Below are positions 31,129 through 48,098 of a DNA stretch of 64,000 nucleotides, one piece after another. The stretch is from Escherichia coli (GTDB lineage Bacteria > Pseudomonadota > Gammaproteobacteria > Enterobacterales > Enterobacteriaceae), in the NCBI RefSeq assembly GCF_044324875.1, contig NZ_CP172185.1. One strand, given 5' to 3'. How positions within the stretch are numbered: the first letter of the stretch is position 1; each line of letters opens with the position of its first letter. The notes below the pieces were generated by a model. It was not told where the DNA came from. It searched no databases and was given only the letters and a program-made list of their open reading frames with translations. The position numbers and the translations under genes are program-made.

Positions 31129-31853
31129 GTAAAAGCCGCTTAACGGTGTTTAGTTTCATTCGCCGTTTTCTTTTGCGGTTAATGGTTGTCCTCGCCGTTT
31201 TTTGGGGCGGGGGCATCGCGTTGTTTAGCGTTGCGCCTGTTCCTTTCTCAGCGGTAATGGTCGAGCGACAGGTCAGCGCCTGGCTGCATGGCAATTTTCG
31301 TTACGTGGCACATTCTGACTGGGTCAGTATGGATCAAATCTCGCCGTGGATGGGACTGGCGGTGATTGCCGCAGAAGATCAGACATTTCCTGAGCACTGG
31401 GGCTTTGATGTCGCTTCCATTGAGAAAGCCCTGGCGCACAACGAGCGCAATGAAAACCGTATTCGCGGTGCTTCAACGATTTCTCAGCAGACGGCCAAAA
31501 ATCTCTTTTTATGGGATGGGCGTAGCTGGGTTCGAAAAGGGCTGGAAGCTGGATTAACGCTGGGGATAGAAACTGTCTGGAGCAAAAAGCGTATCCTGAC
31601 GGTTTACCTGAATATCGCCGAATTTGGCGACGGTGTGTTTGGCGTCGAAGCTGCGGCACAACGTTATTTCCACAAACCCGCGAGCAAACTTACCCGCTCG
31701 GAAGCTGCATTACTGGCAGCTGTATTACCTAATCCACTTCGTTTCAAAGTCTCCGCGCCATCGGGCTACGTGCGTGGCCGTCAGGCGTGGATTTTACGGC
31801 AGATGTATCAGTTAGGCGGTGAGTCGTTTATGCAACAGCACCAGCTTGATTAA
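31125..31853 (+). CDS. mtgA: Monofunctional peptidoglycan glycosyltransferase
   Basis: 242-aa ORF, 4-bp overlap with the elbB stop. Confidence 0.93.
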
Positions 31854-32482
31854 GCTTCGCGCGAAGTGAGGGCCAGCGTTTTGCTCTCACGAGGTTGCAG
31901 ATCTTTCTGCAGGGCAATAGCCAGCGCCGGTTGGGCGATAAATCGTTTCCATAACCGCTCTTGCTTACGCAGACAACACCACTTCGACCAGGTCGCCAGT
32001 GGAATCAATGTGCTTTCACCAATGTTGTCGCAGACGACGGGGATAACCTCTGACTCACTGATGCGGTGACAGAGGATATTCTGCGGCTTCAGCGACATCG
32101 TCACGATACGGTTATCCTGCAAATAACGCTTCAGCTGTTTCAGTAACTGGCGCAGTTGTGCAATGTCTTCTTCGTAACGGCATTGTTCAGCAAATTCGGT
32201 CAGCGTAATGGAGGGCTTGCCGTCAAAATCGGCAATCACATCGTAGACATAACCGGTTCCGCAATCCGTCTCAACGGTACCGTGATAGCGCGGTATTCCA
32301 CTCCAGTCTTTTAACCGGCGACCAAGATGCGTGTAGTACTTTAACTCACGGCGGATCTCTTTATCGCCACCATCGCCACGATGGTAGACAATCTTAATAC
32401 AACGTTGGGCATCTTCCGGATGCGCATAACATTTCCGATGTCTTCCGGTGCCCAGGGGACTTTGTTCAGATAAGCGAATCAT
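31850..32482 (-). CDS. yrbL: PhoP-regulated protein YrbL
   Basis: ORF 31850-32539; start taken at [22 protein letters not shown] (210 aa). Confidence 0.85.
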
Positions 32483-32532
32483 GCCATCTCCTGGAAATAT
32501 TTTCTGACGATCTCCAGTATGGTCGATTAACT

Positions 32533-32549
32533 TAAACAAAACCTAAACA
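32533..32549 (-). promoter_or_regulatory. PhoP box (TGTTTA-N5-TGTTTA direct repeat) upstream of yrbL
   Basis: Minus strand reads TGTTTAGGTTTTGTTTA about 50 bp upstream of the yrbL start. Confidence 0.65.
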
Positions 32550-32694
32550 ATGCCTCTTAAGGTTTTCTTAAGGTTCTTCTGAAAGTGAAAAGCGCACAAA
32601 ATGTACAAATGACGTTGATTGAGAACGATTTCAGTACGCGCTTTTCTTATTGTCGGGGGAGCTTGAAGGGATTTGAATGTCAAAGTGATGAAGA

Positions 32695-44438: not shown

Positions 44439-45698
<1,260 letters not shown>

Positions 45699-45745: not shown

Positions 45746-46024
45746 TCATTTTTTCGGTTTAGTGTAGCTACGCATCAACTGCGTTCTGTCGATAAACTCA
45801 TGGGTCTGCGGATCATGGTAGCGAGATGGCCAGATAATCCAGGGGTCAGTTCCCAGGGCTTTCGCAATAATCATCTCTCCTTTCGGCCAGGGGCGCGATA
45901 ATGCGTTCGCCAGCGTTGAGGAACTCAAACCATTTCTGCGAGATTCCGCCGCCATTGACGTTCCCTTCTTGCGCAAACCCGCAATGATGTCAGCGGGATG
46001 CCAGTCAATGAAATTACTTTCCAT
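45746..46024 (-). CDS. sfsB: Ner-like DNA-binding protein SfsB (Nlp)
   Basis: 92-aa ORF MESNFIDWHPADIIAGLRKKGTSMAAESRRNGLSSSTLANAL... Confidence 0.9.
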   Translation of the reverse strand: MESNFIDWHPADIIAGLRKKGTSMAAESRRNGLSSSTLANALSRPWPKGEMIIAKALGTDPWIIWPSRYHDPQTHEFIDRTQLMRSYTKPKK

Positions 46025-46252
46025 CTTTCCTCACTCCTTAAGTTAGTCGCTTTCATTCAGAACATTTCTTCTGTCGGGCATCACTATACTCCTGATGGCG
46101 TATTGTTCTAAAAAGTTCCTGTAAAGAGTGTGAATATTCAGAATATATAAAGATGTACAGCCCTATTATTCAGGTGTTATAGAGCTGAATAAGTGTTTTT
46201 ATGGAATTTACTAGAACCATCCCGCGCGCTGCGCGGGATGCGGGGGAGGGGA

Positions 46253-47224
46253 TTAACGATCGCGTTGAACAGCGATGTGCGCGAGGCCGATGAGTGCTTC
46301 TCGCCACGGGGTGTCCGGGAGCACCTGTAACGCTGCGATGGCTTTGTCTGCTTCTTCCTCGGCACGCTGACGCGTCCATTCAAGAGAGCCACAAGCGTTC
46401 ATTGCTTCCAGAACCGGTTCCAGAAGATGACGACCGTTACCCTGTTCGATGGCGGTACGAATCATCTGTGCCTGTTCTGGTGTGCCATGATGCATTGCAT
46501 GCAGCAGCGGCAGCGTCGGTTTACCTTCGTTCAGATCGTCGCCGACGTTTTTACCTAACTGTTCGCCATCGGCATTGTAATCGAGTAAATCGTCGATCAA
46601 CTGGAAAGCAGTGCCGAGATAGCGCCCATAATCCTGCAGGCCTTTCTCCTCCTCCGGCGTACAGCCAGCCAGAATCCCGGAACACTGCGCGGCAGCCTCA
46701 AACAGACGCGCGGTTTTGCTATAGATAACGCGCATGTAGTTTTCTTCAGTGATGTCCGGATCGTTAACGTTCATCAGTTGCAGAACTTCACCTTCTGCGA
46801 TGACGTTTACGGCTTCTGACATGACTTCCAGCACTTTGAGCGAACCGAGGCTGGTCATCATCTGGAACGCGCGGGTATAAATAAAATCGCCTACCAGCAC
46901 GCTGGCGGCATTGCCAAATGCGGCGTTGGCGGTAGCTTTACCCCTGCGCATATCTGATTCATCCACAACGTCGTCGTGCAGCAGAGTCGCCGTGTGGATA
47001 AACTCGATCAGGGCAGCAATGGTGACATGCGCATTTCCCTCATAGCCAACAGCTCGTGCAGCCAGTACAGCAATCATCGGACGAATACGTTTACCGCCGC
47101 CGCTGACGATGTAATAGCCTAACTGATTGATCAGTTGGACGTCGGAATTAAGCTGCTCAAGGATTGCCGCATTAACACCCGCCATATCTTGCGCGGTTAA
47201 CTCATTGATTTTTTCTAAATTCAT
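46253..47224 (-). CDS. ispB: Octaprenyl diphosphate synthase
   Basis: 323-aa ORF with DDxxD motifs LLHDDVVDESDMRRG and FQLIDDLLD. Confidence 0.96.
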   Translation of the reverse strand: MNLEKINELTAQDMAGVNAAILEQLNSDVQLINQLGYYIVSGGGKRIRPMIAVLAARAVGYEGNAHVTIAALIEFIHTATLLHDDVVDESDMRRGKATANAAFGNAASVLVGDFIYTRAFQMMTSLGSLKVLEVMSEAVNVIAEGEVLQLMNVNDPDITEENYMRVIYSKTARLFEAAAQCSGILAGCTPEEEKGLQDYGRYLGTAFQLIDDLLDYNADGEQLGKNVGDDLNEGKPTLPLLHAMHHGTPEQAQMIRTAIEQGNGRHLLEPVLEAMNACGSLEWTRQRAEEEADKAIAALQVLPDTPWREALIGLAHIAVQRDR

Positions 47225-47446: not shown

Positions 47447-48072
<626 letters not shown>

Positions 48073-48098
48073 GTTTTTCGCGTCCCGGTAACGGATGA

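Follow-up and report, generated by a model that had tools for sequence, protein, structure and literature searches.

Upstream of sfsB (nlp), the gene of a Ner-like helix-turn-helix (HTH) protein, two inverted repeats lie close together, and the question that this locus raises is whether they form an operator for a dimeric regulator, possibly SfsB itself as proposed in the first-pass annotation of this DNA, or belong to regulatory elements of another kind. The window, i.e., the whole 64,000-nt stretch of Escherichia coli DNA that was analyzed, carries murA (44439-45698, plus strand), sfsB (45746-46024, minus strand; 92 aa, ATG at 46024), and ispB (46253-47224, minus strand), followed by rplU-rpmA; for the sfsB region, "sense" hereafter denotes the minus strand. 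The 601 bases around the repeats found a match in 5,425 of 5,426 complete E. coli genomes, where the flanking genes are annotated as sfsB and ispB. Both repeats reside within the 228-bp ispB-sfsB spacer (46025-46252), 110 to 168 bp upstream of the sfsB start codon. An inverted-repeat scan recovered them exactly as annotated: the 13-bp palindrome ATATTC-A-GAATAT at 46134-46146 and the inverted repeat TTATTCAG/CTGAATAA, with arms at 46166-46173 and 46185-46192 separated by an 11-nt gap. The ATTCAG half-site said to be common to all of them holds only approximately. The arms of the palindrome are ATATTC and GAATAT, so that ATTCAG spans its central base, and the opposite strand reads ATTCTG rather than ATTCAG. 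A fourth copy of ATTCAG, missing from that annotation, occurs in the sfsB 5′ untranslated region (UTR) at 46055-46060.

Simulations on random sequence set the background for these features. Across the whole window, ATTCAG occurs 35 times against 34 expected, i.e., without enrichment. Four copies within 140 bp were reproduced in none of 300 whole-window simulations and in none of 5,000 local simulations, while 5.5% of the local simulations contained some hexamer at least four times; the four-fold cluster is thus unusual in itself, and we counted it against the explanation favored below. In random intergenic regions of the same composition, a 6+6 palindrome with a gap of 0 to 1 appeared in 12 to 13% of cases, an 8+8 inverted repeat with a loop of 3 to 20 in 5 to 7%, and the two jointly in 0.9%. 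Neither repeat exceeds chance on sequence statistics alone. What sets them apart is conservation, which identifies the palindrome as real and constrained, whereas the second repeat is not.

The palindrome falls within a known regulatory site. In the searched literature, the study by Salscheider, Jahn & Schnetz (2014, PMC3950696) is the sole paper treating the sfsB promoter, and its published text counts sfsB among ten promoters that the BglJ-RcsB heteromer activates. As described there, start sites were determined by 5′-RACE, and lacZ fusions were compared in bglJ-constitutive and bglJ-deleted strains; activation required BglJ and was abolished upon mutation of the predicted sfsB box, the center of which lies 65 to 68 bp upstream of the 5′-RACE start. 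The same text gives the motif core as wwTTCykA, with TTC..AA as the most conserved bases, and notes that this core is similar to the RcsAB box's right half (full box TaAGaa|tatTCctA), the half that faces the promoter. We place this box on the present sequence as the 21-bp element TCTTTATATATTCTGAATATT at 46133-46153 (minus strand; center 46143), which corresponds to positions 3334780-3334800 of K-12 and holds TATATTCTGAATATT, the stretch expected within the published sfsB box under this reading. The palindrome makes up the right-hand two-thirds of the element. Its core, TATTCTGA (46138-46145, minus strand), matches wwTTCykA and is the presumed promoter-proximal RcsB half; it is the sole WWTTCYKA match within 46025-46252.

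To relate this element to its published counterparts, WWTTCYKA matches upstream of the other K-12 targets were listed and aligned by eye. Nine of these sites align with that of sfsB as tCTTTATAwATTCTGAAaaT. The sfsB 21-mer given above thereby stands beside those of ynbA (CCTTGATATATTCTGAATTTT), leuO (TCTTTATGTTTTCCGAATTTT), molR (TCTTTATAAATTCCTAAAGTT), and bgl (ACTTTATAAATTCCTAAAATT), and the sites of yecT, ygiZ, yqhG, ynjI, and ykiA resemble these five. A position weight matrix (PWM) was then built from the nine non-sfsB sites (bgl, leuO, molR, ynbA, ynjI, ygiZ, ykiA, yecT, and yqhG). In this leave-sfsB-out matrix, which is not fully independent as its sites were hand-picked by the published core and flank similarity, the sfsB 21-mer scored 27.6 bits, ranking first among 127,960 window positions and above every training site; the next best position reached 15.0 bits. 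Two of the nine boxes, those of yecT and yqhG, figure as predicted in the published text (PMC3950696). A further target, yidL, was omitted from the matrix because it lacks a WWTTCYKA match within 300 bp upstream, in agreement with the remark in the same paper that the yidL site required a manual search. The reconstructed bgl site is centered 226 bp before the ATG, which agrees with the published distance of 96 bp between the site and the Pbgl start downstream of it (PMC3950696). The identity of the sfsB box, as argued here, rests on the published core motif and distance and on this reconstruction of the motif from K-12 promoters. The second inverted repeat and the 5′-UTR copy of the box core scored 5.1 and 1.9 bits, respectively.

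The position of the box relative to the promoter points the same way. A consensus scan returned a single sigma-70-like promoter on the sfsB strand, with the −35 hexamer TTTAGA at 46107-46112 and the −10 hexamer TATAGT at 46083-46088, separated by an 18-bp spacer; the −35 is conserved across genera and the −10 in about 40 species. TTTAGA-18-TATAGT for the ispB>sfsB spacer is among the constitutive promoters bound by the RpoD holoenzyme (PMC3946193). The hexamers predict a transcription start site (TSS) near 46076 (46075-46077), about 52 nt before the ATG and equivalent to about 3334857 in K-12 (NC_000913.3). From the box center at 46143, it is 55 bp downstream to the beginning of TATAGT and therefore about 67 bp to the predicted TSS, inside the published 65 to 68 bp. 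The mapped feature is an upstream activator box centered near −67 rather than a promoter-overlapping operator. Nor do both repeats act as one unit: the functional unit is an asymmetric 21-bp box whose left half, CTTTAT or CTTGAT, lies outside the palindrome. On the sense strand, ATTCTGAAT forms its 3′ promoter-proximal half, and the 5′ half, TCTTTAT, aligns with the CTTTAT/CTTGAT of the other boxes.

A mode of action can be proposed from this layout. The proximal half, ATTCTGAAT, looks like the RcsB half of an RcsAB box and would be read by RcsB, and the distal TCTTTAT is presumably contacted by BglJ. Bound BglJ-RcsB would then activate TTTAGA-18-TATAGT, a weak sigma-70 promoter, from a class-I-like position that depends on helical phase, presumably through recruitment of RNA polymerase. 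We infer both this assignment of subunits to half-sites and polymerase recruitment at sfsB; in the text of PMC3950696, phase dependence is demonstrated at molR and bgl, not at sfsB. Under laboratory conditions, bglJ is silenced by H-NS.

Compared with the published BglJ-RcsB boxes, the sfsB site has the same core, extended consensus, orientation, and distance of 65 to 68 bp, and sfsB is itself a mapped target (PMC3950696). It differs in holding a 13-bp perfect palindrome, which the other boxes do not, and otherwise in nothing different in kind. The symmetry at sfsB is incidental because the other BglJ-RcsB boxes are not palindromic. The conserved palindrome is already known as a published activator site mapped by mutagenesis, an ordinary finding of low discovery value. 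The present analysis adds the identity of palindrome and box, the uniqueness of the box, and its conservation at fixed spacing.

This conservation was traced with an SfsB scan restricted to one genome per species, which returned 80 loci, 66 of them with the ispB-sfsB arrangement and a spacer shorter than 400 bp. Fixed distances separate box, −35 block, and TATAGT in about 40 species, namely 28 bp from the palindrome center to the −35 and 55 to 56 bp from the box center to the −10. The genera that keep the box are Escherichia, Salmonella, Citrobacter, Enterobacter, Leclercia, Klebsiella, Raoultella, Yokenella, Kluyvera, Kosakonia, Phytobacter, Pseudescherichia, and Superficieibacter. Across them, the box is preserved as ATATTCTGAATAT, the form in which the palindrome is near-invariant, preceded by CTTG or CTTT. 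Within E. coli, the 41-bp segment holding the box is present with at least 95% identity in 5,343 of 5,426 genomes and exactly in 3,211. Such fixed spacing fits a phase-dependent upstream activator. Conservation of the box and its spacing extends the K-12 result to about 40 species and speaks for an ancient origin of sfsB control by BglJ-RcsB. Orthologues of BglJ encoded in the syntenic yjjP-yjjQ-bglJ-fhuF arrangement were found in Escherichia, Salmonella, Citrobacter, and Intestinirhabdus (60 to 99% identity) and in Kosakonia and Enterobacter (about 51% identity). Among the best 120 of 334 matches, there was no genuine orthologue from Klebsiella or Raoultella, though both keep the box, and another factor might use it in these two genera. 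One BglJ sequence labeled Klebsiella pneumoniae, encoded on a contig of 966 bp, shares 93% identity with its E. coli counterpart and probably stems from a mislabeled or contaminating E. coli fragment.

The second inverted repeat, TTATTCAG-N11-CTGAATAA (46166-46192), behaves differently. Located in the most variable part of the spacer and outside the functional site, it belongs to a rare, nonconserved haplotype. The sense strand of K-12 reads TTATTCAG...CTGAAAAAT here, and in K-12 and five of six other E. coli strains one arm is CTGAAAAA, which renders the repeat imperfect; among the E. coli haplotypes sampled, the CTGAATAA arm was seen only in the window strain and in E69. The 41-bp segment that carries it has exact copies in 22 of 5,426 genomes, and 1,352 genomes reach 95% identity or more. 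Outside E. coli (E. albertii and all other genera compared), the repeat is absent, with nothing that can be aligned to it. The conservation of the motif among enterobacterial sfsB promoters, proposed as a check when the repeats were first described, is therefore borne out across genera for the palindrome and fails for the second repeat even within E. coli. The prediction of a site for a dimeric HTH regulator divides along the same line, since the palindrome lies within the site of a two-subunit regulator, the LuxR/FixJ-type heteromer BglJ-RcsB, and the second repeat is not conserved. The latter is, we conclude, a chance inverted repeat of one haplotype in a hypervariable spacer, a case in which perfect symmetry in a single strain can be an accident. 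Altogether, the palindrome is very probably the core of the known BglJ-RcsB box and the second repeat a chance feature without a role.

Several other explanations were weighed against this reading. One grants the second repeat a function specific to E. coli, as an RNA or DNA hairpin (e.g., a weak antisense terminator) or an auxiliary protein site. It draws on the perfect 8-bp stem followed by a T-rich run (GTGTTTTTAT) on the plus strand, on the retention of both arms in E69 while the loop differs, and on the scarcity of 8+8 inverted repeats in random spacers noted above. Nevertheless, the predicted RNA fold is not significantly better than that of shuffled sequences (z −1.0 and −1.35), no relevant Rfam match was obtained for the repeat, and no terminator was called, the stem being short of G-C pairs (2) and its loop 11 nt long. 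With one arm broken in most E. coli and the whole repeat missing from E. albertii and all other genera, a function of this sort is very improbable. Equally improbable is autoregulation, in which dimeric SfsB would occupy the ATTCAG/CTGAAT repeats to repress or activate the promoter of its own gene. SfsB is indeed a Ner-like HTH protein, 63% identical to Ner of phage Mu, and Ner can replace SfsB in the stimulation of maltose genes (PMC8987985). At both loci, inverted repeats are located upstream of the ner-type gene. In favor of SfsB autoregulation, we counted that Mu Ner controls the promoter from which it is itself transcribed, together with a weak Ner-like half-site, AGCTGAATAAGT, at 46183-46194, overlapping one arm of the second repeat. 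The resemblance does not extend to the DNA. As read from AF083977 (1029-1058), the Mu Ner operator is AGCTAGCTAAGT-TTTTAC-ACTTAGTTAAAT, i.e., AGCTAGCTAAGT-N6-ACTTAGTTAAAT; its CTAAGT-N6-ACTTAG arrangement has no counterpart in the sfsB spacer, and CTAAGT is unrelated to ATTCAG. The repeats are 6 bp apart in the Mu operator versus 1 or 11 bp at sfsB, and the Mu site overlaps the early promoter, whereas the sfsB repeats lie upstream of −55. A search of the spacer for two inverted 12-bp sites (ANYTARCTAAGT) 6 bp apart returned the half-site at 46183-46194, with two mismatches and no partner. Across the window, the degenerate Ner 12-mer had 18 matches versus 29 expected, fewer than chance. At about −58 to −116, the repeats are farther upstream than the core promoter, in a place where a repressor operator is not usually sited. 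Furthermore, the second repeat of the supposed SfsB site is not conserved, and the conserved element is asymmetric and matches the box experimentally mapped for another regulator (PMC3950696). The searched literature contained nothing on DNA binding or autoregulation by SfsB, and nothing supports the autoregulation suggested at the outset.

The box could be used by an RcsB homodimer, by RcsA-RcsB, or by another partner, besides or instead of BglJ-RcsB and especially where BglJ was not found, which we regard as unlikely. RcsAB and RcsB boxes do share with the sfsB box a right half-site, ATTCyyA/TCYNA, and the LuxR/FixJ-type HTH subunit RcsB, and the right half of the sfsB box matches the RcsB half of the RcsAB box. 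Counted manually, the overlapping E. coli 14-mer TCTGAATATTCACA carries GA-N4-TC as in RcsB boxes. At the box position, ATTCTGAATAT or ATTCCGAATAT is retained in Klebsiella and Raoultella, with no genuine BglJ among their matches; this absence is to be read within the best 120 of the 334 retrieved. On the other hand, the left half of the sfsB box is not of the (G/A)GA type, unlike that of the RcsAB and RcsB homodimer boxes. The homodimer consensus, TN(G/A)GAN4TC(T/C)NA (PMC7913699), scanned as TNRGANNNNTCYNA, has no match with one mismatch or fewer in 46025-46252; the best overlapping 14-mer, again TCTGAATATTCACA, carries two by manual count. Set against the RcsAB box TaAGaatatTCctA (Wehland & Bernhard 2000, cited in PMC3950696), this 14-mer agrees at 10 of 14 positions, also by manual count, and conservation of its right-hand TC, the second of its two, is confined to E. 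coli, K. pneumoniae, and one Citrobacter. Across genera, it is the CTTG/CTTT on the left, BglJ side that is conserved instead, and activation needed BglJ (PMC3950696). A further explanation joins the near-invariant block TTTACAnGAACTTTTTAGAAC at the −35, its inverted copy near ispB, the GAAC/GAGC palindromes of some genera, and the TTCTGAAT copies in the Escherichia 5′ UTR into the operator of a second sfsB regulator, possibly SfsB, or else has the box read by a non-BglJ partner of RcsB in Klebsiella and Raoultella. To this composite proposal, we likewise assign a low probability. Activation of sfsB by BglJ-RcsB through the 21-bp box thus remains the preferred reading.

The sequence elements named in that last proposal are observations in their own right. 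The −35 hexamer is embedded in the conserved block TTTACAGGAACTTTTTAGAAC (46105-46125, minus strand; about −49 to −29), whose consensus.TTACa.GAACTTTTTAGAaCa is kept in 42 loci. The block is almost invariant in 42 species, more so than a −35 hexamer would require. It continues into a palindrome, GAAC-N4-GTTC or GAGC-N4-GCTC, placed between the −35 and the −10, in Citrobacter, Enterobacter, Leclercia, Phytobacter, and Pseudescherichia. The two sides of this palindrome change in step; it is missing from E. coli and could be a candidate operator for some other factor. Directly after the hairpin that follows ispB, GGTTCTAGTAAATTCC at 46203-46220 repeats the −35 block in inverted orientation, with 78% complementarity. 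In K-12, this copy reads GTTCCA-GTAA-GTTCCA, a 10-bp direct repeat. The consensus of the ispB-side copy, gtTCcagtAAgtTCCa, is kept across genera, at a variable distance of 57 to 125 bp from the −35 block.

Within the sfsB 5′ UTR, a repeat scan identified ATGTTCTGAAT at 46055-46065 (minus strand; about +12 to +22), identical to the box core at 10 of 11 positions. The slightly longer ATGTTCTGAATG (46052-46065, minus strand) is invariant in 10 of 10 Escherichia haplotypes, including E. albertii, while neighboring bases vary; the copy is absent in the other genera aligned. E. coli DETEC-E1005 (L083) differs from all other haplotypes by six extra base pairs, ACTGAA, inserted into the 5′ UTR shortly after the predicted TSS.

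Elsewhere in the window, the second-best PWM match (15.0 bits; 32555-32575) is a tandem repeat, CTTAAGGTT-TT-CTTAAGGTT, upstream of a minus-strand open reading frame (ORF) at 31850-32539. The likely ATG of this ORF is near 32483, about 75 to 90 bp downstream of the repeat, which looks like a direct-repeat box of the PmrA/BasR type rather than a BglJ-RcsB site. The 12-mer AGCTGAATAAGT recurs at 48063-48074, overlapping the end of the rpmA ORF, and its presence both there and at 46183-46194 is probably a coincidence. Finally, a GC-rich hairpin, CATCCCGCGC-AGC-GCGCGGGATG, just after the ispB stop (46218-46240, minus strand; −19.8 kcal/mol, z −3.4) bounds the sfsB regulatory region. A T tract is missing from both strands, and the hairpin may be an atypical terminator or a 3′-end stabilizer; its stem shows compensatory changes between genera, e.g., CCCGCGC, CCCGTGC, and TTCCGCG.
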